From an uncultured archaeon (GTDB lineage: Archaea; Iainarchaeota; Iainarchaeia; Iainarchaeales; VGJJ01), in the NCBI GenBank assembly GCA_964358055.1, contig CAYHNT010000001.1, forward strand, positions 3,308-67,307: a stretch of 64,000 nt of DNA, in the 5' to 3' direction. How positions within the stretch are numbered: the first letter of the stretch is position 1; each line of letters begins with the position of its first letter. The position numbers and the translations under genes were made by a program. Shown here piece after piece: positions 3,646 through 31,704 of this stretch. A model generated the notes under the pieces. It had not been told where the DNA came from and did no database searches. It was given only the letters and a program-made list of their open reading frames with translations.

Positions 3646-4185
3646 TCACCTGAGTCTACGTCGCTGTCTCCAGGAGCGTTGGCTGTGGATGATGTATTTT
3701 TTTGTTTTCTGAATAGCCTCCTCTATCGTGGGCTTGGGCCATAAGGTGATGCCACGTTTGTCATAGTGGCGTTCCCTCGAGGGGTTGTCATCCATGGTGG
3801 ATGTGAAATGAAAGCGAGGGTGTTTTTTCTGGAGCTCCTTGAGTACGACAAGTTCGGCCAGGGAGCCGAGTCCGGTGTCGCGAAAGGGTGTTTGTGATAC
3901 GCCGCCGGGCTCAAACCAGGGAGCGGCGATGTCATGGGAGCGGTGGCTGATTTGGTAGGTGACTCGTCCTATCGTTTGACCATTCTTGTATCCTAATATT
4001 GCGATGCGCTGGCGAATAGCGGGATTAGAGGCAAACAGGATGCCCTTCTGTTGCATTCCTCGCACGCGATGCCCAATAAGGGTGGTGTATCCCACGTTTT
4101 CACTGCGGGTTGCTTCTTCTCCTATGGTGTAATAGTAGATGGCATTCGGAACGAGGAGGATTCCAATCGGGGAACGGGTGGCCAT
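3646..4185 (-). CDS. GNAT-family N-acetyltransferase (putative)
   Basis: 179 aa. FRDTGLGSLAELVVL fits GNAT motif A (R/Q-x-x-G-x-G/A) and is preceded by beta-strand-like segments. Confidence 0.4.
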   Translation of the reverse strand: MATRSPIGILLVPNAIYYYTIGEEATRSENVGYTTLIGHRVRGMQQKGILFASNPAIRQRIAILGYKNGQTIGRVTYQISHRSHDIAAPWFEPGGVSQTPFRDTGLGSLAELVVLKELQKKHPRFHFTSTMDDNPSRERHYDKRGITLWPKPTIEEAIQKTKKYIIHSQRSWRQRRRLR

Positions 4186-4253
4186 ATGGTCCTGGGGGTT
4201 TTCTTGGATTTAAACCCTATTTGGGGGAACCTTTTTCCTTGCATTTGGGCCCC

Positions 4254-4261
4254 CTTTTATA
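4254..4261. promoter_or_regulatory. Palindromic TATA-like box (TTTATAAA) in the divergent intergenic region
   Basis: Self-complementary TTTATAAA lies between the divergently transcribed genes at 4185(-) and 4416(+). Confidence 0.35.
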
Positions 4262-4415
4262 AAGGCCTTGTCCCCCTATTTGATAGAAACTAAGCATTAT
4301 TGAGTGTTTTTTCGTTCCCGTTTTGACCCAGTCGGGGTCTCGTATTAGGTGGGTGCACGCTTGTGCCCGGAACGTTACGAAAAATCCCAGATGCAGGATT
4401 TAGTGAAAAAAAACT

Positions 4416-5690: not shown

Positions 5691-5733
5691 AAGGGATGAT
5701 TTTTTCTCTTTCATTACCTAAAAGGTATCTCCC

Positions 5734-6495
5734 ATGGCATCCAAGCACACCTCCCATTCCATGTGCCCAAAATGTGGCACGAAAGAGGGGGCATTCGTGG
5801 GAGTATTTTGTCAATCCTGTTTCCTGAAGGACCATCCTAAACTGATTGAGATTCCATCCAAGCTTGAAATAGAAAAATGCAATCGCTGCGGGAAAGTCCG
5901 TGTGCAAGGACAATGGAAAGAATGGGATGATGATTCGGTTCACCGTTGGATTAAGGAAAAAGTAAAAGCAAAAGGAATGCACGACGTTTCCATTCAACTC
6001 GAAATGACCCCGCATCCAAAGGAAGAGAAGGAGTTTCGTGTGAAAATAGCAGTGGATGGAGAAATCGAGCATTCGAAAGTGGATTTGGTTTTGCATTCCA
6101 TCTTATTTATTCGCAATACTATTTGCAATGATGACATGCTCATTTCGAGCGATTATTATGAGGCCATTATTCAAGTTCGTTTCCCCGATCGTACCGTTGA
6201 ACGCGTACGTTCGTTGCAAGATGAATTAGTCAAGGCACTTGCTCCTATTCAGAAGCTCGATTCGAAAGCAGTTGTAGTGAATTGGGCCTTGCAAACCAAT
6301 GGTTTTGATGCCTGGATTGTTTCCAGTAAGGCTGCTAAGGCTGCGGCTGTTTATCTTTCACGCCAACACAAGGGAACGATTTCGGTTTCAAACAAACAAA
6401 TCGGATTGGATACGCACACGAGTAAAACGAAGTATCGTTTTACGTATTTGGTTCGTTTGCCTGAACAAAAAGTAGAAAAAACCGAAAGCGATTAG
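5734..6495 (+). CDS. Nmd3-like ribosomal large-subunit biogenesis protein (N-terminal Cys4 zinc clusters)
   Basis: 253 aa. CPKCG, CQSCF and CNRCG cysteine pairs at the N-terminus resemble the archaeal Nmd3 N-domain. Confidence 0.5.
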   Translation: MASKHTSHSMCPKCGTKEGAFVGVFCQSCFLKDHPKLIEIPSKLEIEKCNRCGKVRVQGQWKEWDDDSVHRWIKEKVKAKGMHDVSIQLEMTPHPKEEKEFRVKIAVDGEIEHSKVDLVLHSILFIRNTICNDDMLISSDYYEAIIQVRFPDRTVERVRSLQDELVKALAPIQKLDSKAVVVNWALQTNGFDAWIVSSKAAKAAAVYLSRQHKGTISVSNKQIGLDTHTSKTKYRFTYLVRLPEQKVEKTESD

Positions 6496-11884: not shown

Positions 11885-12754
11885 ATGTCCCTCGATAAGC
11901 CTTTTTCGGGAGGTAGCCAGATTCATGCGCTGCGAAAGCGACTCATGGAGCAGACCAAATGGAGCATCTCCTCGGAGCTCTCCTCTAAAGACGCCCACGT
12001 GATTCGTGCGGTGCAAACCAGTAAGAATTTGGAGGCCATTTACAATCTTTTATTCGAACAGGCACTCGAATGGTACGCGTTGCATTTCCCTGAGATTCGA
12101 CAACTCGTACGCGACCCCCAAAACGTGTTAGGATTAATCGTCCGCGGCGGTTCGAGAGGAAAAATAACCACGGATGTGCTGAAACAATTCTACACCGACG
12201 AGTATTCCATCACGCGCGTATTAGAAGCCGCCCAAAAAAGTGCGGGTGGAGAAATGGAGGAGCGCGCATTGAAGGCCATTCAGGGGGTAGCTCAAACCGC
12301 GTTGGATATCAAGAAGGAACAACTCAAACTAACGGATTACGTGGTGCGCCAGATGATGGAGATTGCACCCAATTTTTCCGAGCTTGCAACTCCTACGATT
12401 GCCGCGCAATTGTTGAGCAAAGCGGGGAGCTTGAAACACTTAGCTGAGTTGCCCGGTTCCACCATTCAAGTGATGGGTGCCGAGGAAGCGTTATTTTCTC
12501 ATTTGAAAACGAAGACAAAGCCTCCAAAGCATGGATATTTGTTCAATCATCCGTTAGTCAAACCATTGCCCAAGCACGCAAGGGGAAGAATGGCACGCAC
12601 ACTTGCGGGAAAATTAGCTATTTGTATTCGCGTGGACATGTTTGGTAAGAAACGGGTGGTGGAAGAATATTTGCCCAAGCTTCAAGCGCTTTCAAAGAAG
12701 CTCGCTAAAACAAATCCACGTGTACGTAAACCCTTTGTTCCTCGGAGAAAGTAG
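11885..12754 (+). CDS. nop5: Nop5 (Nop56/58) C/D box snoRNP protein, short form
   Basis: NOP domain with ALFSHLKTKTKPPKHGYLFNHPLV and LAGKLAICIRVD. Sits immediately upstream of fibrillarin. Confidence 0.8.
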   Translation: MSLDKPFSGGSQIHALRKRLMEQTKWSISSELSSKDAHVIRAVQTSKNLEAIYNLLFEQALEWYALHFPEIRQLVRDPQNVLGLIVRGGSRGKITTDVLKQFYTDEYSITRVLEAAQKSAGGEMEERALKAIQGVAQTALDIKKEQLKLTDYVVRQMMEIAPNFSELATPTIAAQLLSKAGSLKHLAELPGSTIQVMGAEEALFSHLKTKTKPPKHGYLFNHPLVKPLPKHARGRMARTLAGKLAICIRVDMFGKKRVVEEYLPKLQALSKKLAKTNPRVRKPFVPRRK

Positions 12755-12763
12755 GAAAGTGGT

Positions 12764-13417
12764 ATGAATCCTTCCCTTCGAAAAGATGGAAAGAATTATT
12801 TCACGCGCTCATTAGTGAAGGGACAAAAAGTCTACGGTGAACGCATCGTCACGGAAGGAAAAATAGAATGGAGAGAATGGAATCCTTTTCGTTCAAAGCT
12901 CGCGGCTGCACTGTGTTCGGATTTGAAGGATTTTCCCATTGCATTGGGAAACCACGTGTTGTATTTGGGTTCCGCCGAAGGAACCACAGTTTCACACGTC
13001 TCGGATTTGGTTGGAGAGAATGGACTCATTGTGAGTGTGGATATTTCCCCTAAGGCTATGGCTACTTTTTCCGCGTTGGTTGAGAGTCGAGAAAATATTA
13101 TTCCATTGCTCGCAGATGCAAACCAAGTTGAGCGTGTGAAAAAAGAATTGGGTGATTTTTCCGCGGATGTAATCGTGCAGGATGTTTCGCAGAAAAACCA
13201 AGCGGATATTTTTATCAAAAACATGCAGGCGTTTGGGAAGAAGACTGCACATGGATTGCTTGTCATCAAGGCGCGTTCAGTTGATTCGTCTCTTGCCCCA
13301 GAAATGGTGTTGAAAAATGAGTTGCGTAAAGTGAAGGAAAAACTTCACGTGTTGCAGGTGGTGGATTTAAATAGATTCGAATCCGACCACTATCTCATTC
13401 ACTGCGTAATGTCGTGA
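12764..13417 (+). CDS. flpA: Fibrillarin, rRNA/tRNA 2'-O-methyltransferase
   Basis: KVYGERIV..EWREWNPFRSKLAAAL..VLYLGSAEGTTVSHVSDLVG is the conserved fibrillarin signature. Confidence 0.9.
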   Translation: MNPSLRKDGKNYFTRSLVKGQKVYGERIVTEGKIEWREWNPFRSKLAAALCSDLKDFPIALGNHVLYLGSAEGTTVSHVSDLVGENGLIVSVDISPKAMATFSALVESRENIIPLLADANQVERVKKELGDFSADVIVQDVSQKNQADIFIKNMQAFGKKTAHGLLVIKARSVDSSLAPEMVLKNELRKVKEKLHVLQVVDLNRFESDHYLIHCVMS

Positions 13418-14055: not shown

Positions 14056-14133
14056 GGGCCCGTAGCTCAGCCTGGACTTCAGAGCACTTCCGTCCTAAGG
14101 AAGGGGTCGTGGGTTCGAATCCCACCGGGCTCG
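14056..14133 (+). tRNA. tRNA-Arg (anticodon CCU), with an unusually long 13-nt D-loop
   Basis: Acceptor GGGCCCG/CGGGCTC, D-stem GCTC/GAGC, anticodon stem CTTCC/GGAAG with loop GTCCTAA, T-arm GTGGG-TTCGAAT-CCCAC. Confidence 0.6.
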
Positions 14134-17255: not shown

Positions 17256-17418
17256 GTTGAGTATTTCGTCTATTTATGCGTTTGGCCTGGGGTTAAGGCT
17301 CCCATGGCAAAAGAAGCCATTTACGGGTTTCTTTTCTCTTTTCGTTCTCGGCGGAAAATTCTACATAGGTATTTAATCGAGTCACCCATGTTAGGCGTTA
17401 GGTTGGGAGGGAGAGGAC

Positions 17419-18054
17419 ATGAGGGTTGAGAAAAACATATTGGTAATCGGAATACTCATTTTAGGAATGAGTGGAATATGGGCCGCGAGCAATTGGCTGA
17501 CACCCACTGAGTCGAATTTTATTTCAACAACTTCTCCAAACAATACCAATCCCACTTATTTCTCCAGCCCCACTTCAATTGGTTATACGGATCTCTCCCA
17601 TAATTCAATTCAGACCAAAATGAGTTTGCAAGGAAAAGTAACGGACTTTAATGGTAATTTAGTAGATGATGCAAATTTAGGAGTAAAAATTAGTGATGCA
17701 AACTCCTGTACAACGAATGTGTTCTATGATTACACCTTCCCAAATTTGATCCAGGATGGATTCTTCAACGTGTTATTAGGACAAAACGAATTATTGAAAC
17801 TCAATTTTAATCAAGACTACTTCATGTGTCTGTATGTTAACAACGAACAGCTCTCCGGTCCCCAAGTGTTTCGTGGTGGACAAGGAGAGGTTCATTCAGA
17901 TGCATTATTTGATGGAAACGCGACAACTCCTTTAGATGTGAATTATTTGAACGTCAAGAATGATTTGAATGTTACAGGCAACCTCAAGTTTGGTTGTGGT
18001 AAGATTTATTGGAATGATTCGAATCAAACCCTCGTAATCCAGGTGAGCTGCTAA
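17419..18054 (+). CDS. Secreted hypothetical protein with signal peptide (operon gene 1)
   Basis: Signal peptide MRVEKNILVIGILILGMSGIWAASNW. GGAGGGAGAGG RBS-like element 8 nt upstream. TAATG overlap with the next gene. Confidence 0.5.
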   Translation: MRVEKNILVIGILILGMSGIWAASNWLTPTESNFISTTSPNNTNPTYFSSPTSIGYTDLSHNSIQTKMSLQGKVTDFNGNLVDDANLGVKISDANSCTTNVFYDYTFPNLIQDGFFNVLLGQNELLKLNFNQDYFMCLYVNNEQLSGPQVFRGGQGEVHSDALFDGNATTPLDVNYLNVKNDLNVTGNLKFGCGKIYWNDSNQTLVIQVSC

Positions 18055-18824
18055 TGCGAGAAATCACGATAGTATGCGTGTTCGTGATGGCGCTCTTCTT
18101 CGCAGGAGGAGTGTACAGCCAGTTTGCGCAAGGTAACGAGGTGCAGGAAAGTATCTCGCGCGGCCTTGCGTATTTGGAATCACGACCCCAGTATGACAGT
18201 GAGCTGTTAGTGATGCATATGATTCAAGCGAAAGGAAATCATCCTGAAGTAGGAACAGCCATTTCAAGTAAATCGTCAAAAACGGATGATTTTCATTATC
18301 CGATTAAGCAGTTTGTTTCGAATGAGCCGATTGAAATGGGGTCTGTTTCCAAAGAAACATTAGAAGCGCCATTTTACTCCGATTTTATTAAATATTTCAA
18401 ATGCGAACCATTATCTCAAGAGTGGATTAATTCTCTTTCAAATCTTTCAGACACAGAAGACGAACCTTACAACGGCGCGCATGCTCTGTGGATTCTTTCG
18501 TTGATTCGTCAAGATTATTTGGGTGGTCGTTGCGGGGATCATTCTGCTTTTGCTGAATCGTTAAATGTTGCTATTGATGCCAAAGCGATAGAATTGGAAT
18601 CGCGTTTAGAAGATAAGAAGAATTTTGATGCATGGGTCGAGCGAATCGCAGTTTTAGGTTTTGCAGGCCATTCGATTTCTCAAGAAAATGTCGAGTATAT
18701 TGTTTCAATGCAGGCTGAGAATGGCGGCTGGGCTCCTCAATTATTTGAGGGTGAGACATTGAATGAAGAACGTTCTCATACGACGGCTCTTGCTGTTTGG
18801 GCCTTGGTGGAGGCATCTTCATGA
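18054..18824 (+). CDS. Secreted protein with prenyltransferase/terpene-cyclase-like alpha/alpha-toroid repeat (operon gene 2)
   Basis: Signal peptide. QAENGGWA....SHTTALAVWAL resembles the PF00432-type repeat. Confidence 0.4.
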   Translation: MREITIVCVFVMALFFAGGVYSQFAQGNEVQESISRGLAYLESRPQYDSELLVMHMIQAKGNHPEVGTAISSKSSKTDDFHYPIKQFVSNEPIEMGSVSKETLEAPFYSDFIKYFKCEPLSQEWINSLSNLSDTEDEPYNGAHALWILSLIRQDYLGGRCGDHSAFAESLNVAIDAKAIELESRLEDKKNFDAWVERIAVLGFAGHSISQENVEYIVSMQAENGGWAPQLFEGETLNEERSHTTALAVWALVEASS

Positions 18825-19588
18825 ATTTCAAATTTTTTTTGGTCGGCTTTGCCCTGGTTGTTTTTTCGTTCTCGGCTTGGGCAGATTCCTGTGCGGATCC
18901 TTCTATTTCGATTGTGGTTGGCACGGACCGATGGTCTATTGGAAATACGTTGGATGTGAATCTCACGTTTTCGGCGAACCCCTCTCCTTCCTCTCTTTGT
19001 CATTGTTTAGAGACAGCTGACTGCGGGATGGAGTGGCAGTCGGATCACAATGGTTCGTGGAATAAAATTCCCAAGAATACCAATTCCGCCATTGATTTGA
19101 ATTGTTCTGACGTTGAATGTTGGACTGGTCGGAGTCATCCGACTGAGGATTTAATGCAAACTCGTTCAATTTCATGCATTGATCAAAATACTTTTCACAT
19201 TCGAGGGCATCATAAGTTTACGAATACGAGTAGTGCGGTAGTAACTGTGTACTGTTATCCTTCTCCAGCATGTACGCCTCCTGTGAGTGGAAATTTTACG
19301 GTGAATCAATCCTGCACATTCATCGCCGTTCCTGTCTTAGTGGACGGGAATTATTATATTGGTTCGAGTGGGTATGTAAAGCACAATGATTCGGATGTTA
19401 ATTTCTTTTCGAATGGTGCAAAGTATTTGAATATTCAGGATGGTGGAAGAATTGATTTGAATCATAGCATGATTTTCGCGGGATTGAGTTTTGAGCAAGG
19501 TTTATTGGGTGGGTTTCTTGGTTTGATTGGCATTTCTTTAGCTGGAGCTTATTCTTTTTTTATTCGAAGAAAGGGGGCGTTGGCGTGA
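18821..19588 (+). CDS. Cys-rich secreted protein with a C-terminal TM anchor (operon gene 3)
   Basis: Start at Met9 gives an ATGA overlap with the previous stop. Signal peptide, about 20 Cys, C-terminal GGFLGLIGISLAGAYSFFIRRKG anchor. Confidence 0.5.
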   Translation: MNFKFFLVGFALVVFSFSAWADSCADPSISIVVGTDRWSIGNTLDVNLTFSANPSPSSLCHCLETADCGMEWQSDHNGSWNKIPKNTNSAIDLNCSDVECWTGRSHPTEDLMQTRSISCIDQNTFHIRGHHKFTNTSSAVVTVYCYPSPACTPPVSGNFTVNQSCTFIAVPVLVDGNYYIGSSGYVKHNDSDVNFFSNGAKYLNIQDGGRIDLNHSMIFAGLSFEQGLLGGFLGLIGISLAGAYSFFIRRKGALA

Positions 19589-22350
19589 GGTCGTTTCTTT
19601 TTCTTTTCATTTTTTTGTTTTTTTCTTCTGTGGTTTTTGCTCAGTCATATCCTTTGATTTCGGATGGTTCTTTTGAGGAAAATTGTGCATTATCTAAGTG
19701 TGATTATAATGTTTCTCAAACGATTGGGGACGATTGGATTTTTTCCAAGAATGGTGCGGCGAATGTTCAGGAGTTTACGATTACTCAAGACTTGAATAGT
19801 TCAGATGGTTGGCCTTCTCATGGCAGTTATTATGGAAAGCTGGATGCGAATTCTATTGGTGGTTTTGCTCAGATTCAAAGCACGTTTGTTTTCAATGGTG
19901 GAATTATTTACTATGATGTGAACCATTATGGAGGGGCTCCTTCTTTTCCGAATCCTCCTTTTTCAGGTGCACATTTCCAAATTACCTATACCTATGAAGA
20001 TGGCAGTGGTGAGGTCACATTATTGGACTCTAACACGAATTTGATTGGTCTAGACAGAAATGTGGTATTGCCAAATCATCCTGGGAAGGTTTCTTTCAAA
20101 TTGACGAATCAGTTTCAGCAGCAGCATAATACGATTGTTTTTGACAATTTGCGCTGGCGACGTCTTCCCGTGATTGAAACAGATTCGTATCCTTTTGATT
20201 CGCATGTTTATACGGGTCAAAGCTTTTTTGTTGATATCAATTTTTCTACGGGAGCCTCTTGCCAACTTAAAGATGATAGCACAGGACAATCTTATTCAGC
20301 TACGTACATTGGGAATGGTATTTACCGTTCGAGTGGTTTGTCTTTTTCGAGTACTGGGTCGAGTCTGGTGAAGAATTTTAGTGCGATTTGTAATAGCGAG
20401 ACCAATGATGATTCTTTTTACTTGTTGAAGTTGAATAGGGATGGGTTGATTTCACAAAACGGTGGCTTTGATGTAAATGGAACGCCGTCCACGACTACTA
20501 GCACAAACACAAAGTTTCAGGATTGGAATGTGGGAAGAAGTGGAACAGGCTCGTTTGCCGTGATTATAGATAATTCATCGAGTAAGATTGCAGCAGATGG
20601 TCTTCATTATGGAATAATGACAGCAACGGGAATTGGGAGTGCAACGGATATTACTTCCCAGAGTCTTTTGCAAGGTGGAACCGTATTCTTTGATGTGAAT
20701 CGGATAACCGGACCAACGCTTGGTGATTCAAACTTCCAAGTGATTTATTTCCCATTGTCAGGCGGTTCTACGGTGTTGTTGAACCTTTCTTTCACCATTC
20801 AATCCAGTCAAATCGTTGGGTCTGACAAAAATGTGAGCATCCCTAATCAATTGGGTCATCTCCTTTTTCGTGTTCAAAACGTTGGAGTTGGACAAAACGC
20901 GCAACTGTATTTGGATAATGTACGATATTCAAGTCCAAAATTTTCTGAAAACACATCCTGTAAACAAGTTATTTACAAAGGGGACTCATCACAAAAGATT
21001 GATTTAGTCTTTGTTGGAAGTGGATTTGAAGACCAAAATCAATTTGAATCAACGATACGATTCGTGATAAATGAAGATGGCGACCAGAACGGATTATTTT
21101 CATTTGAACCATTCAAATCAAATATTAACAAATTCAATATATGGATGGTGGATGAATACAAAACATATACACTTCACCATCTGGACGTGTCGCCAATTAT
21201 CGATAAATGGACATTTGGTCCTTTTCCATTGATTGATGCGACGATAGCATGTCCATTTGGAAATGAATTTGCGCTATTATCACTTTATCCGCGATTCCGA
21301 TCTTACGTTGATGCTGACGCTAATTCAGCTTCATATACAGGTAAGCCTGCTCATTTTGCCCATGTCGGGTTGGGTGGCGAAATAGTTGGTGACTTGAATT
21401 ATCCTATTGACGTGGGTATTACTGATCCGTATGATCAAAATTGTCAAGGGAATGGACAATGGCCTGCGTGTGGGATTTCCGCCTATGATCCTAATGATTC
21501 ACAAAGGCTTTTCGCTCACGAATTTGGCCACAGTTTTGGTGGATTATTTGATGAATATAATAATGGAAGTTCCAGTAATGGAAGAGATACTGGGACACTA
21601 GCGAATTGTGATGCAACAAATATTTGTCCTAAATTCTCAGGATATTCAGGGATTGATTGTAATGCAGTATGTGGTTTTACAAACTGGTATCGTCCATATG
21701 CCGAAAACACTTTGATGGGGGATCACAGAAAACAAAAGATCGATTATGAGGAAGTAAGTGAAGACAGACTAACTGCCATTACTAATGGTTATTCAACTGC
21801 AACCATTTATGATCAAACAATTGATATTTTTCACACTTTCATCTTGAATGGGGCAATTGGGGCTGGCAATATGGACCTAAGCTCCGTGAATTTCGTTCCG
21901 GGAGCAGCTCCAGAGATGGTATTACCTACGAACCCACGCTACATGCTAAAAGAATTTTCGAGCACAAATGATGTGCTATATGATTACAACTTCGACATCC
22001 CCTCTGCTATTAATTTTGATCTTTTAAGTGGGGATGATGCAAATGGCAGTTATTCATTAATCGAGGATAGCAATACTCTGATCGATCTAGTAGATGTAAA
22101 CTTTTCTGTTAGAGCACCGTATTTACCCGGAGCAGTGAGAATAATTATTTATGACATAAATGGAACGCAGTTACTAGAAATCAGTACCTTGCCATTCACG
22201 ACTAATTTGTCGACTAGTATCGGATATGGCGGTGGATTTGTTACTTCGGCCAATTATAAAGTTGGATATAGTTTATTGCAACAACCTACAGTCGACCTCA
22301 ACAGTTCGAGTTATAAAGTACAATTGGGGTGGAATGCATATTATGACTAA
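19585..22350 (+). CDS. Secreted zinc metallopeptidase, M64 (IgA-peptidase)-like (operon gene 4)
   Basis: GTG start in a GTGA overlap. Signal peptide MRSFLFLFIFLFFSSVVFA. AHEFGHSFGGLFDEY (HExxH...DEY) at nt 21514-21558. KIDLVFVGSGFED resembles the M64 N-terminal motif. Confidence 0.55.
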   Translation: MRSFLFLFIFLFFSSVVFAQSYPLISDGSFEENCALSKCDYNVSQTIGDDWIFSKNGAANVQEFTITQDLNSSDGWPSHGSYYGKLDANSIGGFAQIQSTFVFNGGIIYYDVNHYGGAPSFPNPPFSGAHFQITYTYEDGSGEVTLLDSNTNLIGLDRNVVLPNHPGKVSFKLTNQFQQQHNTIVFDNLRWRRLPVIETDSYPFDSHVYTGQSFFVDINFSTGASCQLKDDSTGQSYSATYIGNGIYRSSGLSFSSTGSSLVKNFSAICNSETNDDSFYLLKLNRDGLISQNGGFDVNGTPSTTTSTNTKFQDWNVGRSGTGSFAVIIDNSSSKIAADGLHYGIMTATGIGSATDITSQSLLQGGTVFFDVNRITGPTLGDSNFQVIYFPLSGGSTVLLNLSFTIQSSQIVGSDKNVSIPNQLGHLLFRVQNVGVGQNAQLYLDNVRYSSPKFSENTSCKQVIYKGDSSQKIDLVFVGSGFEDQNQFESTIRFVINEDGDQNGLFSFEPFKSNINKFNIWMVDEYKTYTLHHLDVSPIIDKWTFGPFPLIDATIACPFGNEFALLSLYPRFRSYVDADANSASYTGKPAHFAHVGLGGEIVGDLNYPIDVGITDPYDQNCQGNGQWPACGISAYDPNDSQRLFAHEFGHSFGGLFDEYNNGSSSNGRDTGTLANCDATNICPKFSGYSGIDCNAVCGFTNWYRPYAENTLMGDHRKQKIDYEEVSEDRLTAITNGYSTATIYDQTIDIFHTFILNGAIGAGNMDLSSVNFVPGAAPEMVLPTNPRYMLKEFSSTNDVLYDYNFDIPSAINFDLLSGDDANGSYSLIEDSNTLIDLVDVNFSVRAPYLPGAVRIIIYDINGTQLLEISTLPFTTNLSTSIGYGGGFVTSANYKVGYSLLQQPTVDLNSSSYKVQLGWNAYYD

Positions 22351-22687
22351 TTTAACGCTTGGTCTCACAGTGATTGGTGTACTTTTATTTATTTTTGGGC
22401 TGAACGGGGTCATTGTTTCTTTTTCGAATTATTCAACATCGGCCGGATTGGAAAATACGTTTCCAAGTCCTACAGCATATTTTTGGGCTGGTATCGGGTC
22501 AATTTTGATTGTGATTTCTTCAATAACAATTACGCCTATTTATGAAAAATTCTTTAAGAAAAATAAATTCTTAATGAATATCTATATGAGATCGGTTATT
22601 TTTATTTTGCTTTTGTTGATTGGGTATTCAATTATTTTTCTCACGATGCAATTCCAAACAACTCCGGCGTTATATCCTGTACAGTGA
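22334..22687 (+). CDS. Small polytopic membrane protein (hypothetical)
   Basis: About 118 aa with 3-4 hydrophobic segments. Start overlaps the peptidase stop. Confidence 0.4.
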   Translation: MHIMTNLTLGLTVIGVLLFIFGLNGVIVSFSNYSTSAGLENTFPSPTAYFWAGIGSILIVISSITITPIYEKFFKKNKFLMNIYMRSVIFILLLLIGYSIIFLTMQFQTTPALYPVQ

Positions 22688-23001
22688 TTTTTCCAATGAA
22701 TATTGAAAAAATTAAAACAGTAATCGGTGTTGGAGTCTCTTTAATTAGCCTTTATTTTTTTTATTTGATGGCTTTATGGCTCCCGACAACCGGCGGGACT
22801 AATCCTACTCGCGAATTTTACATGAATATTTTGGGCCCTTTCTTGTTACTCTTGTCTGGATTATTGTGGATTAGTTCTATTAGAAAAAATATTCCATTTT
22901 TCAAACAATTTAATGATGGTAGTCAAGTAATAATATCTGTTCTTCTTCTCATTGTAGGATTTTTGTTTATGTTTGCGATGTCACCTTTAAGTGGGATTTG
23001 A
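22684..23001 (+). CDS. Small polytopic membrane protein (hypothetical)
   Basis: 105 aa with 3 hydrophobic segments. 4-nt overlap with the previous gene. Confidence 0.4.
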   Translation: MIFPMNIEKIKTVIGVGVSLISLYFFYLMALWLPTTGGTNPTREFYMNILGPFLLLLSGLLWISSIRKNIPFFKQFNDGSQVIISVLLLIVGFLFMFAMSPLSGI

Positions 23002-23367
23002 AATGATATTTGAAAAGAATAAAATCCAATTTAATTATCTGTATAAACCTGTTTGTAAACTCGACGGGGAATATTATGTCCAAGGATAAACAAATTTCTA
23101 TTTTTGCCGATTCTGGCGGTAATTATGCTTGCTATAGTAGTTTGGCTCTTAATGCCAATTTCACCATCCTCCAATCATATTGGACTTACTGGATACACTT
23201 GTACAGTAAGACCCAAATATTGGATAAATACGAATAAGTTTGTTTGTTTTCCATTGTCGGCTTCGTGACTCTTTGAGGATTTGACAGGCGATTTCGGCAC
23301 TTCCCCACCCATCTCGTTTTTATTGCGCCTTTTCATTCTGCCTGAAGTCAAAGAAGAGGTTTTTTTC

Positions 23368-24372
23368 ATGCAAGTGTTTGAGGATCGTGGAGTGATGATT
23401 CGGGGTTCAGAGCGTCTTTTAGTGGACCCTTCTCATCGAAAGGTGGATGCAGACAAAGTGTTTGTGACGCATGCGCACTCCGATCATACTATTATTGGGG
23501 CCAAAAACGAATTCCCCTATTTCATGAGCACGCAAACCCATGGAATGATTGAGGAAAAGATTCCAAAGAAAGCCGTTACTAGAAAAATGGATTTTGCTAA
23601 AAAGTATCGCGCGGGAAACGAGCGTGTTTCACTGGTGAATGCGGGACACATTTTGGGTTCGTCGCAGGTAGTAGTAGAAGGGGATCAGAAAGTAGTGGTT
23701 ACGAGTGATTTCAAATTGCAGGATTCCATTGTAATGAAAGGCGCGGAAGTGGTGCCGTGTGATATTTTAGTGATTGAGTCCACTTTCGGACAAAAACAAT
23801 TTGCATTCCCCCCACGTGAAAGTGTGTATGAGGAAATTGGAAACTGGGTAAAAGAAGCGAAGAAAAATAACATGCTTCCCATTCTCGCAGGATATGCAAC
23901 TGGGAAAACGCAGGAGTTAACTAAAGTCGTGAATGAATACGCAGGTGTTACTCCGTATGTCCATGAAAGTATTTTTGATAAAAACAAATTGCATGAAAAG
24001 TTTGGCGGAAAATTAGGAGACTATGTGAAGTTGGATCATAATTTGAAAGAAGCCGAGTTGCTCATTCTCCCACAGAGTTTGTGCGCCCCGCACGTGTTGC
24101 ACGCGATTAGTGTTTCGGCTAAAAAATCAATTGCCTCCGCCAAGTGTACAGGTTGGGTGTGGAAGGAAAGCTATGATCGTAATTTTGCATTAAGTGATCA
24201 CGCGGATTACAATCAATTGATGCAATACGTTCAGGAAGCGCGACCCAAGCAAGTGTACACTCATCATGGTTTTGAGCGTGAATTATCGTTATCCATTACT
24301 AAAGAATTGGGCATTCTATCCAAACCTATTGGGGAAGCGAAACAGAAAGCATTGGCCTCGTTTGTTCATTAA
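23368..24372 (+). CDS. beta-CASP metallo-beta-lactamase family nuclease (short paralog)
   Basis: Start at Met30. VFVTHAHSDHT (HxHxDH), NAGHILGS, C-terminal SDHAD...THHG. Confidence 0.7.
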   Translation: MQVFEDRGVMIRGSERLLVDPSHRKVDADKVFVTHAHSDHTIIGAKNEFPYFMSTQTHGMIEEKIPKKAVTRKMDFAKKYRAGNERVSLVNAGHILGSSQVVVEGDQKVVVTSDFKLQDSIVMKGAEVVPCDILVIESTFGQKQFAFPPRESVYEEIGNWVKEAKKNNMLPILAGYATGKTQELTKVVNEYAGVTPYVHESIFDKNKLHEKFGGKLGDYVKLDHNLKEAELLILPQSLCAPHVLHAISVSAKKSIASAKCTGWVWKESYDRNFALSDHADYNQLMQYVQEARPKQVYTHHGFERELSLSITKELGILSKPIGEAKQKALASFVH

Positions 24373-24399: not shown

Positions 24400-27300
24400 A
24401 TGAAGAAAAACCTGCTTCCGAGTATGAGCGTCTTAGATTCACTCAAGAATGTTTATTTTGAGCTTGAGGACAAATATTACGCTTTTTTGGACAAACTTCA
24501 AACCAAACTCCCCGTGTATTCAGTCGTTGATCCGGTGGATAAAATACTCCCCAGTTTTGGTATTCTCCTTGCCCTTGTGGTAGCAATTTTGGGCTTTGGT
24601 TTGTTCTCCGCGCTGGCAGGAGTGGGCGGGGGATTTGAGACGGTTGTTGAATTCAATGACACGCAAGGAAACCCCTTGGAAGGCGTGCAGGTTTCATTTG
24701 AACGTGATGGAAAATTAATCGAAACACTCTTTACGAAAGAAGATGGTTCTGCAACCACGAGCGTGGGGGCAGGAACTTATTTTATTACGGCCTCCAAAGA
24801 AGGCTATGTCGAATTAGTGGAAGAAGTGGAAATCAATTCCGCATTCACTCGAATTTTTACGCTTTCAAGCGCGACCCCTGAAACCACGCAGCGTGCGTTG
24901 TTGATTCAGGATGCACAGCAAGGAATTGTGGGAATGCTTTCACCGGTGGCCATCTCTCTTGCGTTCTCCTGTCAATCGGGAACGCCTCCTTCGAATCAAA
25001 CCGTGTACAATGGAAATGTTTCATTTTTGCAGCCCGGTGACTGTACCGGATTGAGTGTAACGATTTCAGCCAATGGTTTCCTGACTAAAACACAATCAAT
25101 CTTAGGCGACACTACCATTGTCGTGTTGCAATCCACTGCCGCATTTGAGCCCCCTCCTGAAACGGAACAACCCGATGCGGGAAGTGTAGAAATCATTGCA
25201 GTGGAGACCGGCGGTGCACCCTTGGAACAAGCACAAATAAAATTATACAAAATTCCAAGTGTAGGTTCTAACATTCTTGCAGACCAAGGATTGTCCGACC
25301 CGAATGGATTGTCTACGTTTTCAAACGTTACTCCCGGAAAGCACATCGTGATTGTGTCCAAGGCCGGATATAAACAAACTCAGAGTGCGGAATTCCAAGT
25401 CAATGCGGGGGAGAAAGCCACGTTGAATGTGGAAGTCGCCAAAAGCAGTTCTAAACGAAAAGTGTTTGTGAAAATTTTGAGTAGCGCCAATCAAATTATT
25501 GTTCTAGGCTCGAGTGTTTCATTGTTCGTGCAAACCGCGGGTGGAAAATACATTGAGTACGAGTCCTTCACCAGCGACACGAATGGAATAGTAAGCGCAC
25601 CCCTTGCGGATTTCAATGGGAACACCCAACTTGTCGTAACGCACGGAGATTTTGTCACCAAAATTTTACTCAACACGGGGATTGTTTCGGAAGACGCAGT
25701 GAGTCCCATTCCTATCTTACTCGATCCCTTAGCCGCACCCGGTTCAAACGGTAGCAGTTCGAACGCCGTTGTGGCAGATGTGAAAGTAATAGACGAAGTA
25801 GGATTGAGCGTGGTGAATGCGACTGTTCACTTGTACACGCCGGATGCAAATGGGGTGTTAGTTGGAACGCTTCAAACGAATACCCTTGGAATTGCACGAT
25901 TTACCAATCTTCCCGCCGGCACTTACCAAGCCACTGCCTCTACAAGCGTAGGCGATGGGGCAAGTCCTAAAATACAAGGAGATTTGGGTAAGATTATTGT
26001 ACTCCCTGTAAGCTTGTCTCTCGGAAACGCATTGGTGCAAGTGACAGTGAAAGATGAATTAGGTAAAGTAGTGACGGATGCGAATGTTTTCATTTATTCA
26101 TTTGTTGAAAACACCCTTCAATCTGCAAGTAAAACAAACGCACAAGGGTTGGCACAATTGGGTGTGATAACCGGACAAAAGGTGTATGTAAAAGTCGAGA
26201 AGGCTACCTATCTTCCTTTTTCATCTGTGCCGTTTGACGTGATCAAGGATAACACGCACATTATTCAGCTTGAAGTTAGTCTTACGAGCGCCTCGCAGGG
26301 AGTGGATGTTTCATTAACGAGTATTTACGAGCTCTCTGCGACGCAGGGACCAATTCTCGCACAAGCATTAGTGCCGGGTAACACGTATGCTTTCCATTTT
26401 GCAGTCAAAACGCCCGTGCAACAAACAGGAATGAAAGCAGTGGTGCGCGTGAACAAAGATTCTCCTGCTGCACAAGGCGCAACGGATGTGGGTAGCATTG
26501 TAGGTGGAAGCACGGCCAAAGGTGGCGTGGCGTTTTACACGACGTATAATTCAAATGATGAATTTTCTCCCTTGATTCCTGCAGACTCAGGAGTTCCCTC
26601 GAAAGTGGCATTGAATACGCTTGGAGATGTGAACGGTGCCAGTTCGTTTGAGTATATTGTGAATGTTAAAATTAATCCCGCTGCGCTACCCAACACGGAC
26701 AAGTTGGATGTGAAGTTCCAATCTAAAGGCGGCACGCAAGTTTCGCCCTTGTATTTTGAATCCTTCACCATCGGCGCACCTCTCCCTGGGCAAGGGGATT
26801 TTTCATTTGTCTTTTTCGTTTCCACGCAAGGAGGGACAAAGACTCAGGTGAGCTCGTCTGTTCCTTTGGTGATGTTCGCCCAGCAAGACTATGTGTTAGA
26901 CTACGTGATAACGAATACCTCGGGTAGCAACTTCCCCAGCGCCACCATGCTCCTCACTACGAATACTCCCGCGTCATTCACCGCCGCACCCAATCAGGTC
27001 TCGTTACCCGGATTCAACAATAGTTCTTCCGTGAGCGGGAGCATCACCATCAAGAGCACGCAAGAGTGTAGCAGTTCTCAAACGCAGTGTTCTACTCTCA
27101 CAGCAAACTTGAGTGGGGTAGGAACAGGAAATTCACCCACGAATTATCCCTTGTCCATTTTCACTTCTCCCGAGAAACAACTCGCGATGAATATTACTCC
27201 TTCCTATTTGATTCCGGCTCAAACACAATTAGTGCAAGTAGTAGTAACGGATCAATTGAGTAATCTTGCAGGGACATCTAAAGGAGTACAAGTGGAAGGC

Positions 27301-30300
27301 CAATTGGAAAACTCCTCCGGCGCCCCTCTTGGAAGTTCTATTCTTTTTACGGAATCAACCAATGCATTGTTTTTTGCTTCCATTCCTGCCGCGAGTGAGG
27401 TAAGCCAATTGCGCGTCACGGCATCCGCGGCAGGCTACGTATCAGATGTGGTAGTTCTTCCAGTTTCCAATCAGATTTTGTTGAATTATTCGCAGGACTT
27501 TAGTTGCGTGAGTTTGAATCCAAATCCTTTGTCTTTCAACTTGGGCGCATCCGGCTCGTTGAGCGTGCAAACCATTAGTTGCCCAGAGGACATTGATCTT
27601 TACACCACGGGCTTCTCTGAGAATAGCACTGTGATTCAATTGGCCGTGAAGAATGGTTCGAATACCATCACCTCGAGCAACCCCTTGTCCTTGAATGAGA
27701 GTGAATCCAAAACGTTAAGCGTGCAATCTCCTTCGTATTTTGGACAATACCCTTTGTACGTGTATGCTAAGTACAAGAGTCAGTCTACTTATTCCTTAGT
27801 CAAGAATGTCGATGTGATTGTCAATCCTCTTGCAGGAAGTTCCACGTGTTTAAATTTGTCCAAGTACGCGTTTGACGTGAAAGACGGTAGCGACAATGCA
27901 ACCGTAGTCAACAATTGTAATCCCGGCGTCCACGATGCGTTTTTGCCCCGTGCTGTGGTGAATGTGAATGGGGTATACGGTCATGCCATTCCTCCTGTAC
28001 TCACTCCTGAGATGCAAAACCCTGGTAGTTTGGTTCCCTTTTCATACCGTGTGAGTATGGATTATGATAATTCAACTAATTTGGATGTCAATCACGATGA
28101 TTTTCCTCAGTTTTTCACGGCATCCAATTGGAACCGATATGCTATCACTAATCCTGCTAAGTTTTTTACCCTGAAAAGCGAATTTGCTGGAGTCACTCCT
28201 GTTTTGATTAATGATGATCATTACAATGGTAGCGATTTCATTCTTGAAAGTCCAAACGATCCCCAAACCCCGTGGGCGGCTCCTGCAAGCGTGCGTTCGG
28301 TGTTGTTTGAAACCACCTTTGTCACGAGAAATGAAGTCACGCTCGATGAACTTTGTTTTACCTCCACCAATATCGATGCTATTCTGGTTCGAATTGATGG
28401 GGTGGATGTGCAGACCGCCCACTCTCCCAAATGTGCAATCCCCAATTATCTTTTTTCACCCGGGCCCCATGCGATTCAGATTTTCATGTATGCGGTAGAA
28501 GGTCAGAACTATACGCTGACTGTCAAATACAAAGACGCCCCTGCCACCACCGTTGGAAGCAATACGGGTGGATACGCTCCTCTTTCGGATGGTAAAAACA
28601 AGGGATTCTTTGTGAGTCCCTTGTATGGTATTCTATACAGCAATGACACCAAGAAGAACGGCCCCCTGTTACACGGTCCCTTTTCCAATGGAGTCATTCC
28701 CTCTACCAATAGTGTAACGCCTAAGTACATTGACAATGTAGGCGGGAATATTCAGTCGATTATTCGTAACAAAGCCGGTGGAATGGAGCACTTGAAGCAG
28801 TCCTATCTGCATATTTCCTCCACCAACCCCTCCGTGCGTACCTTCATGCATCACACGGATGCATATGCCCAATACGTTGGGTTCGACGACGCGACGGGAC
28901 AACAAGATATTGTATTTGAGAACTTGGGAATGGAAGGAGAAAAGTACGGTCTTCTTACGTTAACCGATTATTCACTCCCCACCAGTGCGTCGGGTAAAAC
29001 ACTCGATGTTGGGATTCTCTTGGATTCGTCTCCTTCTATTATTTTGAATGAGAATGATGAAACCTCCTCTTCAAGCGGAACCGTGTATCAGGAAGGACTA
29101 TGTAAGACGTTAATTGACATTAAGCGCGGATTGGAGTATTATTCCAACGCCACCATCAACATGCAAGTCGCATTGATGCACGACGTGAGTGATACGTATC
29201 ATGCGTCCTCGAATCAAGCACAAAATCTCCCGTGTTTAGCACAGTTTCCCAACATCACGGAGTTATTCCCTGGGCAATTTCCTGGTTACACGGAAGGCAC
29301 GCATAATTTGGATGAAGCCTGGGCATGGGGTGCACAAAAGTTTGCCTCGCATGCGTTTTGGAAAAACTCGACCAAATTAATGATTGTTGTCACGGACAAT
29401 AAGCCCACGGGATTGGGAAACGGAAAACTCACGACGGATTGGCAAGGGAGTATTGAGGAGTTGCACGTGAATAATGCGGCAACCGAATTAAATAATCGTG
29501 GAATTCGTGGAGTGGTATTGTACAAGTATCCTTTGGAATCTTCTTCGGAAGCAAACCACCCGGCAGGAAGCGATACCAAGCAGGATGCCGTGGAAATGTA
29601 TGAGTTGTTTGCCCAGCAAACGAATGGTTTCACGGAGGCATTAGACTTTTCGGAGCTCATCAACAATAACAACCCCCATTCCTTTGATCAGGCCGAATAC
29701 AATAAGGTGGCCATTCGTTTGTTACAACATGCGTTTCCTACTAAACAGGAAACCATTGTGGTGAAACTGGTCTCGCATCCCTTAGACGCGTGTATTGGGG
29801 AGAATGGGGAAGTGGGTGTTACTGGAAGCTCCGCGTTGCCTAAGGTTTCCTACAATTGGCAATGGGGTTCCACGCAACAAAACATGTGTGATTTCAAAAC
29901 AAACGATCCTACGAACTTCCGTTACTGTGACGCCACCCAATTCATGATTACGCTTACGCAAAAATTGTTTGCATTGGAACAAGCCTATGCACCGGGTGCC
30001 ACCCCTGCACAGCAAGCCCAAATCCCTTCCCTCACAAGTTTTGATGTGTACGTGATGCGCGACGCATTGAATGATGATTTTAGGAATGACTTTGTGGAGT
30101 TCTTTGTGAACAGCAGCTTCACCGACGCTCCTGCGTATTTCAAAAGCGCATTGGGCGGAGCATGGAAAGACTATGTAAACCCCGCATTCAACAAACTTAC
30201 GTTTGAAATTGATGGAAACCCCACTAATTCAATTGTGTCAGCGGGATTGTATCGTGCGCAAATTCAAGTCACGTGGGAAAGTGACGTGGGCACGTTCTTC

Positions 30301-31704
30301 GTGGCGAGTTCTCCTTCCGCACAAATTACAGTTAAGCTGACCAAGCTCGGAGATGCAAGTGGACTTTCAGGTTATTCTGAATTCCTCGAGCTTCCCTTGG
30401 ATGGCCTAATTGGTTTGGATGATTCCTCTCTGACATTCCATCGCAATGGGTACGGTACTGCTTTCACCGGACAAACCTTGGACTTAGTTCCCACTCCCGG
30501 CTTAACGTTACGAACGTATCCCAGTCAGCCCGGGCAAACGGCGTTGAACACGGTCAACGTGCCCGCGCTTCCTGCATTCAAAGAGTTGAACACGCAGAAT
30601 AGGGGTGAATTGGTGAGCTTCAACAAGAGCAGCGGAACGCTTTCCCTGCGTCCAAGTGTCCCCGCTCCCGTGTTAGGAAAATGGTCAAGCAATTCCTCAG
30701 GACAAGGACACCTATATTATGGGATTAGCGAAACTTCTTCTCAAGGCGGACAGAGCTACGTTTCTCATTCAACGGACACTGGAACACCCTTATCTAAATG
30801 GGTTCCCATTGCATCGGATTTAACCCAGAGCACATTCGGTTGCACCACCCCTAATTGTGATATTTGTTTGGATGCCGGAGGAAACGCCTTTGTTTCTTCG
30901 CTCAAGTTTGATTTAAACCCGGGAACAGGTGCATGCGGGTTACGTCCTCCTCTTACAAAAAATACGGCGTTTGGTTTTACGTCAACGGGTAGCGTGAGTA
31001 ATGAGTCGTATTTGAGTACGGTGTTCTATCGTGTCCCTGGAAATGATTATTCCATTATTTTAGGATGTAACGATTCGTCCTCCCAACAAATTGGAGCGAT
31101 TGCCACCCATTCAAGTGTGATTTCGAACGGTGGCGCATCCGTTGCGGGATTGGATTTAGGCTCGTCTTCGTTAGAGGATCAACTTGACAATGCGGTTTCG
31201 TTATACGGCATGCTTAATTTGATGGAAAGCAACTACACCTGTATCAACAACACGGCAGGCACGAGTCGCGTGTATTGGAATGCTCCGCGTTTGCGCGAGG
31301 ACTTGGCGAATGCAAAACCCTCATTTGGTCACATAGGAAATTCGTGTGTGGCAACTGGTAATCCATTAGGTGCAGCCGGAACGTTCACCTTGCTCTCCAA
31401 GAATGGAATCATTTCTCAGTCTCAAACCACGTTGGGGATGTGTCCGTTGTACAACAATAATAATGCCCAGAATGGGTATTATGCAAAACTTGGTGTGCCT
31501 TTTCCGGTTGGCACGCAGATTCGTTTCTTAGGATCAGGTGCCATTACGGATGACCCCTTGAATGGGGTGGTGCAGTATCGTTCGAATGCTACTAATTGTA
31601 CGCAGTTGACTTCATTGAATTGTCCGGGTCCAGGAACTCCGTTTGATTTTTGCTCCGCAAACACGGAAAGGTATTGGTCGGGCACTCCTGCAATTAACCC
31701 GTAA
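24400..31704 (+). CDS. Giant (2434 aa) N-terminally anchored surface protein with CarboxypepD_reg/Ig-like repeats and a vWA (MIDAS) domain
   Basis: N-terminal TM ILLALVVAILGFGLFSALAGV. Repeated G(T/K)Y.I.ASK.GY modules. DSSPS (DxSxS) at about nt 29015-29030 and MIVVTDNKPTG at about nt 29380. No C-terminal anchor. Confidence 0.75.
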   Translation: MKKNLLPSMSVLDSLKNVYFELEDKYYAFLDKLQTKLPVYSVVDPVDKILPSFGILLALVVAILGFGLFSALAGVGGGFETVVEFNDTQGNPLEGVQVSFERDGKLIETLFTKEDGSATTSVGAGTYFITASKEGYVELVEEVEINSAFTRIFTLSSATPETTQRALLIQDAQQGIVGMLSPVAISLAFSCQSGTPPSNQTVYNGNVSFLQPGDCTGLSVTISANGFLTKTQSILGDTTIVVLQSTAAFEPPPETEQPDAGSVEIIAVETGGAPLEQAQIKLYKIPSVGSNILADQGLSDPNGLSTFSNVTPGKHIVIVSKAGYKQTQSAEFQVNAGEKATLNVEVAKSSSKRKVFVKILSSANQIIVLGSSVSLFVQTAGGKYIEYESFTSDTNGIVSAPLADFNGNTQLVVTHGDFVTKILLNTGIVSEDAVSPIPILLDPLAAPGSNGSSSNAVVADVKVIDEVGLSVVNATVHLYTPDANGVLVGTLQTNTLGIARFTNLPAGTYQATASTSVGDGASPKIQGDLGKIIVLPVSLSLGNALVQVTVKDELGKVVTDANVFIYSFVENTLQSASKTNAQGLAQLGVITGQKVYVKVEKATYLPFSSVPFDVIKDNTHIIQLEVSLTSASQGVDVSLTSIYELSATQGPILAQALVPGNTYAFHFAVKTPVQQTGMKAVVRVNKDSPAAQGATDVGSIVGGSTAKGGVAFYTTYNSNDEFSPLIPADSGVPSKVALNTLGDVNGASSFEYIVNVKINPAALPNTDKLDVKFQSKGGTQVSPLYFESFTIGAPLPGQGDFSFVFFVSTQGGTKTQVSSSVPLVMFAQQDYVLDYVITNTSGSNFPSATMLLTTNTPASFTAAPNQVSLPGFNNSSSVSGSITIKSTQECSSSQTQCSTLTANLSGVGTGNSPTNYPLSIFTSPEKQLAMNITPSYLIPAQTQLVQVVVTDQLSNLAGTSKGVQVEGQLENSSGAPLGSSILFTESTNALFFASIPAASEVSQLRVTASAAGYVSDVVVLPVSNQILLNYSQDFSCVSLNPNPLSFNLGASGSLSVQTISCPEDIDLYTTGFSENSTVIQLAVKNGSNTITSSNPLSLNESESKTLSVQSPSYFGQYPLYVYAKYKSQSTYSLVKNVDVIVNPLAGSSTCLNLSKYAFDVKDGSDNATVVNNCNPGVHDAFLPRAVVNVNGVYGHAIPPVLTPEMQNPGSLVPFSYRVSMDYDNSTNLDVNHDDFPQFFTASNWNRYAITNPAKFFTLKSEFAGVTPVLINDDHYNGSDFILESPNDPQTPWAAPASVRSVLFETTFVTRNEVTLDELCFTSTNIDAILVRIDGVDVQTAHSPKCAIPNYLFSPGPHAIQIFMYAVEGQNYTLTVKYKDAPATTVGSNTGGYAPLSDGKNKGFFVSPLYGILYSNDTKKNGPLLHGPFSNGVIPSTNSVTPKYIDNVGGNIQSIIRNKAGGMEHLKQSYLHISSTNPSVRTFMHHTDAYAQYVGFDDATGQQDIVFENLGMEGEKYGLLTLTDYSLPTSASGKTLDVGILLDSSPSIILNENDETSSSSGTVYQEGLCKTLIDIKRGLEYYSNATINMQVALMHDVSDTYHASSNQAQNLPCLAQFPNITELFPGQFPGYTEGTHNLDEAWAWGAQKFASHAFWKNSTKLMIVVTDNKPTGLGNGKLTTDWQGSIEELHVNNAATELNNRGIRGVVLYKYPLESSSEANHPAGSDTKQDAVEMYELFAQQTNGFTEALDFSELINNNNPHSFDQAEYNKVAIRLLQHAFPTKQETIVVKLVSHPLDACIGENGEVGVTGSSALPKVSYNWQWGSTQQNMCDFKTNDPTNFRYCDATQFMITLTQKLFALEQAYAPGATPAQQAQIPSLTSFDVYVMRDALNDDFRNDFVEFFVNSSFTDAPAYFKSALGGAWKDYVNPAFNKLTFEIDGNPTNSIVSAGLYRAQIQVTWESDVGTFFVASSPSAQITVKLTKLGDASGLSGYSEFLELPLDGLIGLDDSSLTFHRNGYGTAFTGQTLDLVPTPGLTLRTYPSQPGQTALNTVNVPALPAFKELNTQNRGELVSFNKSSGTLSLRPSVPAPVLGKWSSNSSGQGHLYYGISETSSQGGQSYVSHSTDTGTPLSKWVPIASDLTQSTFGCTTPNCDICLDAGGNAFVSSLKFDLNPGTGACGLRPPLTKNTAFGFTSTGSVSNESYLSTVFYRVPGNDYSIILGCNDSSSQQIGAIATHSSVISNGGASVAGLDLGSSSLEDQLDNAVSLYGMLNLMESNYTCINNTAGTSRVYWNAPRLREDLANAKPSFGHIGNSCVATGNPLGAAGTFTLLSKNGIISQSQTTLGMCPLYNNNNAQNGYYAKLGVPFPVGTQIRFLGSGAITDDPLNGVVQYRSNATNCTQLTSLNCPGPGTPFDFCSANTERYWSGTPAINP

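Follow-up and report, generated by a model that had tools for sequence, protein, structure and literature searches.

What kind of zinc peptidase is encoded at positions 19585-22350 of a 64,000-nucleotide stretch of contig CAYHNT010000001.1, from an uncultured archaeon of the Iainarchaeales (the whole stretch analysed is called the window below), and what might it do outside the cell? A first-pass annotation had recognised a zinc-binding motif in the 921-amino-acid (aa) product of this gene and named the M64 (IgA-specific metallopeptidase, or igalysin) family, with a gluzincin-like site whose third zinc ligand would be the Glu in an Asp-Glu-Tyr segment. We found that the protein is an ordinary, multi-domain member of the known M64 family with unusual add-on domains. 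It is likely a Sec-secreted, acidic zinc endopeptidase of the metzincin clan, predicted to be active and to use an Asp (D656), not the Glu, as third ligand of its catalytic zinc. The window is archaeal, carrying an aNOP56-fibrillarin pair (11885-13417) and aCPSF-type β-CASP nucleases. The gene and its export signal lie as follows.

19585-22350, + strand: M64 gene, encoding a 921-aa secreted M64 (igalysin) metallopeptidase, GTG start
19585-19644, + strand: signal peptide, aa 1-20 (MRSFLFLFIFLFFSSVVFAQ), by sequence inspection

The GTG start overlaps the stop codon of the preceding gene, and no competing open reading frame (ORF) of at least 80 aa lies on the opposite strand beneath the M64 gene. 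An identical 921-aa product was called on an independent contig from the same population (Hainich aquifer well H41, 0.1 µm filter fraction). The sole hydrophobic 19-residue stretch of the protein falls within aa 1-26 (MRSFLFLFIFLFFSSVVFA/QS), with signal peptide cleavage likely after VFA, and a hydrophobicity scan detected no further transmembrane (TM) segment. Because aa 1-26 is the only hydrophobic stretch, together with the acidic composition (93 D+E against 48 K+R) and the 16 N-x-S/T sequons, secretion is a reasonable reading, in agreement with the first-pass annotation.

The family was also named correctly. Pfam PF09471 (Peptidase_M64) was the top match of the protein, at 30.5 bits (E=2.6e-7) against a gathering cut-off of 26 bits, and a 909-aa orthologue from another uncultured archaeon (L003) scored 38.8 bits; the match is not due to chance. 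Two families that had been named as competitors, M6 and M12, did not give the best hit: the NCBIfam TIGR03296 M6 domain (immune inhibitor A/thuringilysin; motif HExxHxxGxxD) and Reprolysin_2 of M12B (adamalysin/reprolysin; motif HExxHxxGxxHD) both fell far under their cut-offs. When phmmer and a clade profile were run against the PDB, only solved M64 chains were matched (4DF9/9QDI, 3P1V, 9EKK, 9QDH, 9I4Z). A profile built from five sequences of the catalytic core (A2) retrieved 3,566 proteins in a word-index search, and nearly all of the 120 matches listed were already annotated with PF09471. The same profile returned 2,015 cluster representatives (50% identity) in an exhaustive search, of which 511 reached E≤1e-10 and 34 reached E≤1e-30. 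The M64 hallmarks found in the protein are the profile score, the motif HExxHxxxGxxD, Glu and Tyr after the Asp, a Met-turn followed by a C-terminal helix, and a superposable fold. PHROGs gave no match to the M64 protein or its three upstream neighbours, so a viral origin is not supported.

To place the active site, we compared the protein with the two structurally and biochemically described members of the family. BF3526 (Bacteroides fragilis; PDB 4DF9/9QDI) belongs with BACOVA_00663 (3P1V) to M64 cluster CL-I, both at 16-21% identity to the window protein; IgAse, or ThomasA (Thomasclavelia ramosa; PDB 9QA6, 9QDH, 9I4Z, 9EKK), is the founding igalysin in cluster CL-V. Two 2025 structural papers describe igalysins as metzincins with the motif HExxHxxxGxxD, which has one residue more before the Gly than the canonical metzincin motif HExxHxxGxxH/D (PMC12237041, PMC12402451). 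The elements of the catalytic domain are listed below, with residue roles in the zinc motif assigned by homology to BF3526 and IgAse; BF3526 numbers are from a HMMER alignment, corrected for a 17-residue chain offset.

20941-21819, + strand: M64 catalytic domain, aa 453-745
20995-21033, + strand: KIDLVFVGSGFED, aa 471-483, first core beta-strand block of the M64 domain, aligning to BF3526 CIDVAILAEGYT
21517-21558, + strand: zinc motif HEFGHSFGGLFDEY, aa 645-658
21709-21717, + strand: Met-turn T709-L710-M711, first position Thr
21748-21789, + strand: C-terminal helix of the catalytic domain, aa 722-735 (model helix 273-286), without the CxxC of the solved enzymes
H645 (BF3526 H311, IgAse H539): zinc ligand
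E646 (BF3526 E312, IgAse E540): general base
H649 (BF3526 H315, IgAse H543): zinc ligand
G653: turn residue in the zinc motif
D656 (BF3526 D322, IgAse D550): third zinc ligand
E657 (BF3526 E323, IgAse E551): family-specific Glu
Y658 (BF3526 Y324, IgAse Y552): tyrosine switch

The motif seen in the first pass is real: positions 21514-21558 on the + strand, from codon gct to codon tat, encode AHEFGHSFGGLFDEY (aa 644-658) within the 921-aa ORF, and the earlier KIDLVFVGSGFED segment is present as well. Extended, the motif reads H645-E-F-G-H649-S-F-G-G653-L-F-D656, that is, HExxHxxxGxxD. In the solved enzymes, the third ligand of the catalytic zinc is an Asp, D550 in IgAse (PMC12237041) and D322 in BF3526 (PMC12402451), the Glu that follows binds a separate structural zinc in both (PMC12237041, PMC12402451), and Y552 (PMC12237041) and Y324 (PMC12402451) act as tyrosine switches. 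Because the window protein aligns in register with both enzymes, D656 rather than E657 is the predicted third ligand, and the enzyme would be a metzincin of the Asp-ligand type; a plausible third ligand, which the first-pass annotation had sought, is thus available, although not in the residue it had proposed. In an alignment of 99 homologues, H645, E646 and H649 were invariant, and D656 (98/99), E657 (98/99), Y658 (97/99) and M711 (95/99) nearly so. M711 shares its column with the Met of C-x-M in BF3526-type sequences, whose CxxC stands at +9/+12 (compare BF3526 C409/C412).

An AlphaFold2 model of aa 450-921, with the 99-sequence alignment as input, had a mean predicted local distance difference test score (pLDDT) of 81.7, with most of the catalytic core above 90. 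Foldseek returned 16 matches to the model at E≤1e-3, every one of them M64, and the following match was at E=0.057. The model has the secondary-structure elements of a metzincin, namely a backing helix (484-495), an edge strand (629-633), the active-site helix (636-652), a connecting segment with a β-ribbon (aa 693-703), the M711 coil and the C-terminal helix (722-735). A strand (E23-30 in model numbering) was placed at the KIDLVFVGSGFED block.

The window protein departs from the solved enzymes at their second zinc site, where a family-specific Glu and three Cys, one in the Met-turn and two in a CxxC of the C-terminal helix, bind a structural zinc (PMC12237041, PMC12402451). This Cys set was not found here: T709 stands in place of the first Cys, and no Cys follows M711. 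Other Cys are present in two regions.

21607-21672, + strand: four conserved Cys (C675, C681, C692, C696), between D656 and the Met-turn
21307-21480, + strand: subclade-specific insertion, about aa 575-632 (about 58 residues), with an extra Cys pair, C620/C629

The alignment divides into two groups. Bacteroidota-type sequences have C-x-M with CxxC 9-12 residues further on, forming the Glu+3Cys zinc site, whereas the group of the window protein has S/T/G-x-M, lacks CxxC and conserves Cys 459/556 and 675/681/692/696 in the pattern nC-x(3-6)-C-x-kW … C-xxx-C … yR … s-x-M; column 709 is accordingly Cys in the former and Ser/Thr in the latter. C675, C681, C692 and C696 may form disulfides or an alternative metal site. 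The insertion is gapped in 86-90 of the 99 aligned homologues (at H590, G597, E599 and C620), and its C620/C629 pair is an addition of the protein's own subclade. In all archaeal and Candidate Phyla Radiation (CPR) homologues examined, six to eight other conserved Cys replace those of the structural zinc. Among the loci recovered from species-representative genomes, the CxM+CxxC site was missing from every archaeal and CPR locus, as well as from Actinosynnema and a few other bacterial loci, and was present in the great majority of Bacteroidota and Ignavibacteria loci. Because archaeal, CPR and some bacterial M64 loci lack the site, the second zinc of the solved enzymes is a trait of a subgroup and not a criterion for membership in the family.

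Outside the catalytic domain, the protein carries the following parts.

19654-20166, + strand: A module 1, aa 24-194, jelly-roll of binding type, from an internal repeat and a local hidden Markov model of A modules
20167-20448, + strand: B module, aa 195-288, conserved linker domain with the Cys pair C226/C269, conserved in clade alignment A1
20449-20940, + strand: A module 2, aa 289-452, ten-stranded beta jelly-roll of MAM/CBM type, adjoining the catalytic domain
21829-22191, + strand: C-terminal beta-sandwich, aa 749-869, with AlphaFold2 strands at pLDDT of about 90
22192-22347, + strand: C-terminal tail, aa 870-921, conserved, of low model confidence

About 600 aa before the motif and 250 aa after it had been taken as non-catalytic. 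Because the catalytic domain spans about aa 453-745 and thus extends beyond the motif, these parts are smaller, about 430 aa (21-452) and about 175 aa (746-921). The two A modules share 29% identity (E=3e-16) in a segment-wise comparison; BLAST of the whole protein against itself gave the identity match only, and the repeats surfaced only when segments were compared. Protein P0002 has three A modules, with B repeated along with A, and an invariant linker, SPKFSENTSC, joins A module 2 to the catalytic domain. MAM/CBM-like jelly-rolls recur as binding modules on secreted hydrolases and proteases. Neither the A modules and N-terminal 435 aa nor the C-terminal 177 aa, including the beta-sandwich, matched Pfam at E up to 10, and an A-module profile used in a word-index search of 5.8 billion proteins yielded a single 104-aa match. 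Judged by sequence, the A module appears to be essentially without relatives outside a small clade and is tied to no known sequence family. The jelly-rolls on meprin, enteropeptidase, VesC and gingipain, which are MAM, cleaved-adhesin or CBM-like accessory domains of secreted proteases, are comparable to the A module, but at 7-15% identity no sequence relationship is detectable. The C-terminal beta-sandwich is placed like the FN3 "wrapping domain" of IgAse, a likeness of position only, and in the tail (aa 870-921) no TM segment or known sorting signal was found.

From the conserved residues we infer that the enzyme would work as follows. On the active-site helix, H645 and H649 would bind the zinc, and E646 would be the general base that activates the zinc-bound water; the helix would run one residue longer and, after the G653 turn, present D656 as the third ligand. 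Y658 would be positioned to stabilise the tetrahedral intermediate as the tyrosine switch, with M711 as the Met-turn beneath the metal. Cys 459/556, 620/629 and 675/681/692/696 probably stabilise the lower subdomain as disulfides or a different metal site. Most likely, the two jelly-roll modules and the C-terminal beta-sandwich would hold or position either a cell surface or a macromolecular substrate that is probably glycosylated. A small-genome, DPANN-type archaeon would probably use the enzyme to degrade proteins outside the cell or to remodel surfaces. Should the protein prove to be an active protease that is secreted and carries modules of adhesion type, it would be a candidate route by which genome-reduced DPANN could gain peptides or act on host surfaces.

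Several points weigh against this interpretation. The PF09471 match spans two short stretches only, the zinc-site geometry and Cys pairing are putative, the modelled MAM/CBM-like fold of the accessory modules names no ligand, and no archaeal M64 protein has been biochemically characterised. In addition, BF3526 trims N-terminal segments and leaves intact proteins uncut, its N-terminal domain occluding the cleft (PMC12402451). Because BF3526 is one of only two characterised M64 members, the term endopeptidase is not guaranteed for the window protein.

The alternative that survives best is accordingly a restricted N-terminal trimming peptidase (oligopeptidase) like BF3526, in which A module 2 would cap the non-primed side of the cleft and admit only short or flexible N-termini. 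BF3526 owes this behaviour to its N-terminal beta-sandwich (PMC12402451), and here too a jelly-roll adjoins the catalytic domain through the invariant linker. However, the A module is unrelated in sequence to the BF3526 domain (PF16217), and IgAse also has a preceding domain, yet is an endopeptidase (PMC12237041). We regard trimming as unlikely. A catalytically dead adhesin or surface protein that keeps only the protease fold is much less probable. In its favour, the protein has large binding-type modules, its gene diverges fast compared with its operon partners (see below), and a trypanosomatid cluster of Pfam M64 has lost its catalytic residues (PMC12402451); nevertheless, H645, E646, H649, D656, Y658 and M711 are all intact here and invariant across the subclade.

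Slightly less probable again, and quite improbable in absolute terms, is the gluzincin-like site, the part of the first-pass interpretation that did not hold. E657 is 98% conserved and close to HExxH, and a Glu replaces the Asp in some M64 clusters (PMC12402451), but both solved M64 enzymes use the Asp for the catalytic zinc and the next Glu for the structural zinc, with the window residues in register. The structural neighbours of the model are all metzincins with a Met-turn, M711 is conserved, and E657 lies only 8 residues past the second His. In gluzincins (M4 thermolysin, M1, M13), the Glu ligand comes from a helix of its own, the "glutamate helix", which lies about 18 residues or more downstream, and there is no Met-turn. 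An immunoglobulin-A-specific protease, for which the Pfam family name alone speaks, can be practically dismissed for an aquifer archaeon, as only the small Bacillota cluster CL-V is specific for IgA, through elements that are unconserved even in BF3526 (PMC12402451).

BF3526 has a PF16217 beta-sandwich as N-domain and the Glu+3Cys structural zinc (C398, C409, C412), whereas the window protein, twice as long, has Thr in the Met-turn, no CxxC, six to eight other Cys and the ~58-aa insertion, and adds the two jelly-roll modules and the C-terminal beta-sandwich. The accessory parts of IgAse (a C-type-lectin-like N-terminal domain, the FN3 wrapping domain and Cys/His zinc-binding domains) are non-homologous to the MAM/CBM-like jelly-rolls, and IgAse differs further in its sortase anchor, its structural zinc and a substrate, IgA, that is irrelevant for an aquifer archaeon. 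The short DPANN and CPR M64 proteins (for example P0020, P0033, P0045 and P0049; Nanoarchaeota, Woesearchaeota, Diapherotrites) have in common with the window protein the motif, a signal peptide, a comparable habitat and lineage, and C459/C556 plus four Cys before S/T-x-M. In contrast to the window protein, they are mostly 350-600 aa of core alone, at 23-30% identity to its core, without the subclade insertion, the A and B modules and the C-terminal domains.

Full-length relatives were few, with four in the first search (38-46% identity). In the exhaustive search, this contiguous core was seen in about 30 cluster representatives, within secreted proteins of 640-1,700 aa. Because only about a dozen of them carry A modules, their architectures indicate that domains have probably been shuffled about a core that is itself conserved. 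Among named relatives, P0006 is nearest to the catalytic core, at 60% identity; it comes from a Candidatus Woesearchaeota metagenome-assembled genome (MAG). This relative, the archaeal genes of the window and the identical protein from well H41 point to a probable DPANN/Woesearchaeota origin. The first-pass annotation had called the family rare and essentially uncharacterised in archaea. The latter holds, but the family is not rare: M64 cores are frequent in DPANN, occurring in at least 19 archaeal species-representative genomes (Woesearchaeota, Pacearchaeota, Nanoarchaeota, AR20) plus Methanosarcinales MAGs in a scan biased toward peptides of the window protein's clade, and several related archaeal proteins are named "M64 family metallopeptidase" by NCBI. 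A survey of 6,830 M64 sequences in 15 clusters named no archaeal cluster (PMC12402451), and our literature search for M64 with DPANN or Woesearchaeota found no paper linking them. Cores without the structural-zinc Cys were also seen in 750-1,500-aa proteins of Methanosarcinales MAGs (L009, L013) and of the CPR groups Peribacteria and Nomurabacteria (L023, L039), which suggests that small-celled groundwater lineages and some methanogens have this type in common. These results extend to ultra-small groundwater archaea a family that was characterised structurally only lately, and only in gut bacteria. They do not overturn current understanding, as family assignment of related archaeal proteins is already automatic.

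The M64 gene is one of six consecutive genes on the + strand (17419-23001) whose stops and starts overlap. The others are as follows.

17419-18054, + strand: upstream gene 1, 211 aa, signal peptide; 59% identity to L003, 58% to L002, 93% to L069
18054-18824, + strand: upstream gene 2, 256 aa, signal peptide; 28% identity to L003, 91% to L069
18821-19588, + strand: upstream gene 3, 255 aa from the ATG of an external gene call, Cys-rich, with signal peptide and C-terminal TM anchor; 28% identity to L003, 70% to L069
22343-23001, + strand: two small membrane proteins of 114 aa and 105 aa, each with three TM segments, whose genes overlap the M64 stop and one another

L003 and L069 have homologues of all three upstream genes, in collinear order. 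Their products matched no Pfam or PHROG family, and a PDB sequence search with two of them gave non-significant matches only, including squalene-hopene cyclase at E ~1. In L002 (1436-2617), the orthologue of upstream gene 1 is longer, at 393 aa, and includes a domain of the Peptidase_S74 "chaperone of endosialidase" family (27.2 bits, cut-off 22), with matches to PHROG tail-fibre families; this domain is missing from the window copy. The L002 orthologue hints that the product of upstream gene 1 may be a trimeric fibre. In L068, all that separates the M64 gene from the AAA ATPase gene upstream of it is a single 110-aa ORF, with 40% identity to the N-terminal part of upstream gene 1.

L069, from the same well, was compared over window positions 17348-22350 and its own positions 837-5896. 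Its DNA is 81% alike over 17348-19688, ending about 100 nucleotides inside the M64 gene; past 19688 the likeness vanishes save for an 85% island at 20921-21153. The L069 M64 protein shares only 35-46% identity with that of the window, so that the protease is far more diverged between the two than its operon partners. This mosaic is compatible with either cassette exchange or rapid evolution of a putatively surface-exposed protein. The L069 M64 gene is split into two ORFs, possibly by a frameshift or an assembly error. The region of the operon (18000-24000) has a GC content of 37-42%, against about 45% elsewhere in the window; horizontal transfer of the operon was weighed, and this mild dip is too weak as an argument for it.

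Three features of this M64 protein are mildly interesting: it has lost the Cys set of the structural zinc, its jelly-roll modules are orphans, and its divergence is mosaic inside a conserved surface-protein operon. There is also a more speculative reading, which we consider a long shot: the M64 protein might be the exchangeable and quickly evolving "business end" of a six-gene surface operon conserved in DPANN (fibre-like, secreted and Cys-rich anchored proteins with two small membrane proteins). Its orphan MAM/CBM-like modules would dock on the envelope of a host or neighbour, and the protease would digest surface proteins there, as a host-interaction or feeding device, with a Cys arrangement new to solved M64 structures stabilising the lower subdomain.

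Downstream of the operon, a ligase-associated beta-CASP exonuclease homologue (23281-24372) is followed by a 2,434-aa predicted surface protein (24400-31704; CarboxypepD_reg, SpaA, Big_1 and PEGA-type repeats), ~2 kb from the M64 operon. Elsewhere in the window, the Rfam tRNA model detected a third tRNA at 14056-14133 (+; 54.8 bits) that ARAGORN did not report and that may be an atypical or intron-containing archaeal tRNA. Two neighbouring paralogous class II aminoacyl-tRNA synthetases, one of asparaginyl-tRNA synthetase (AsnRS) type and one of non-discriminating aspartyl-tRNA synthetase (AspRS) type, are encoded on the - strand at 39631-41061 and 42013-43335.

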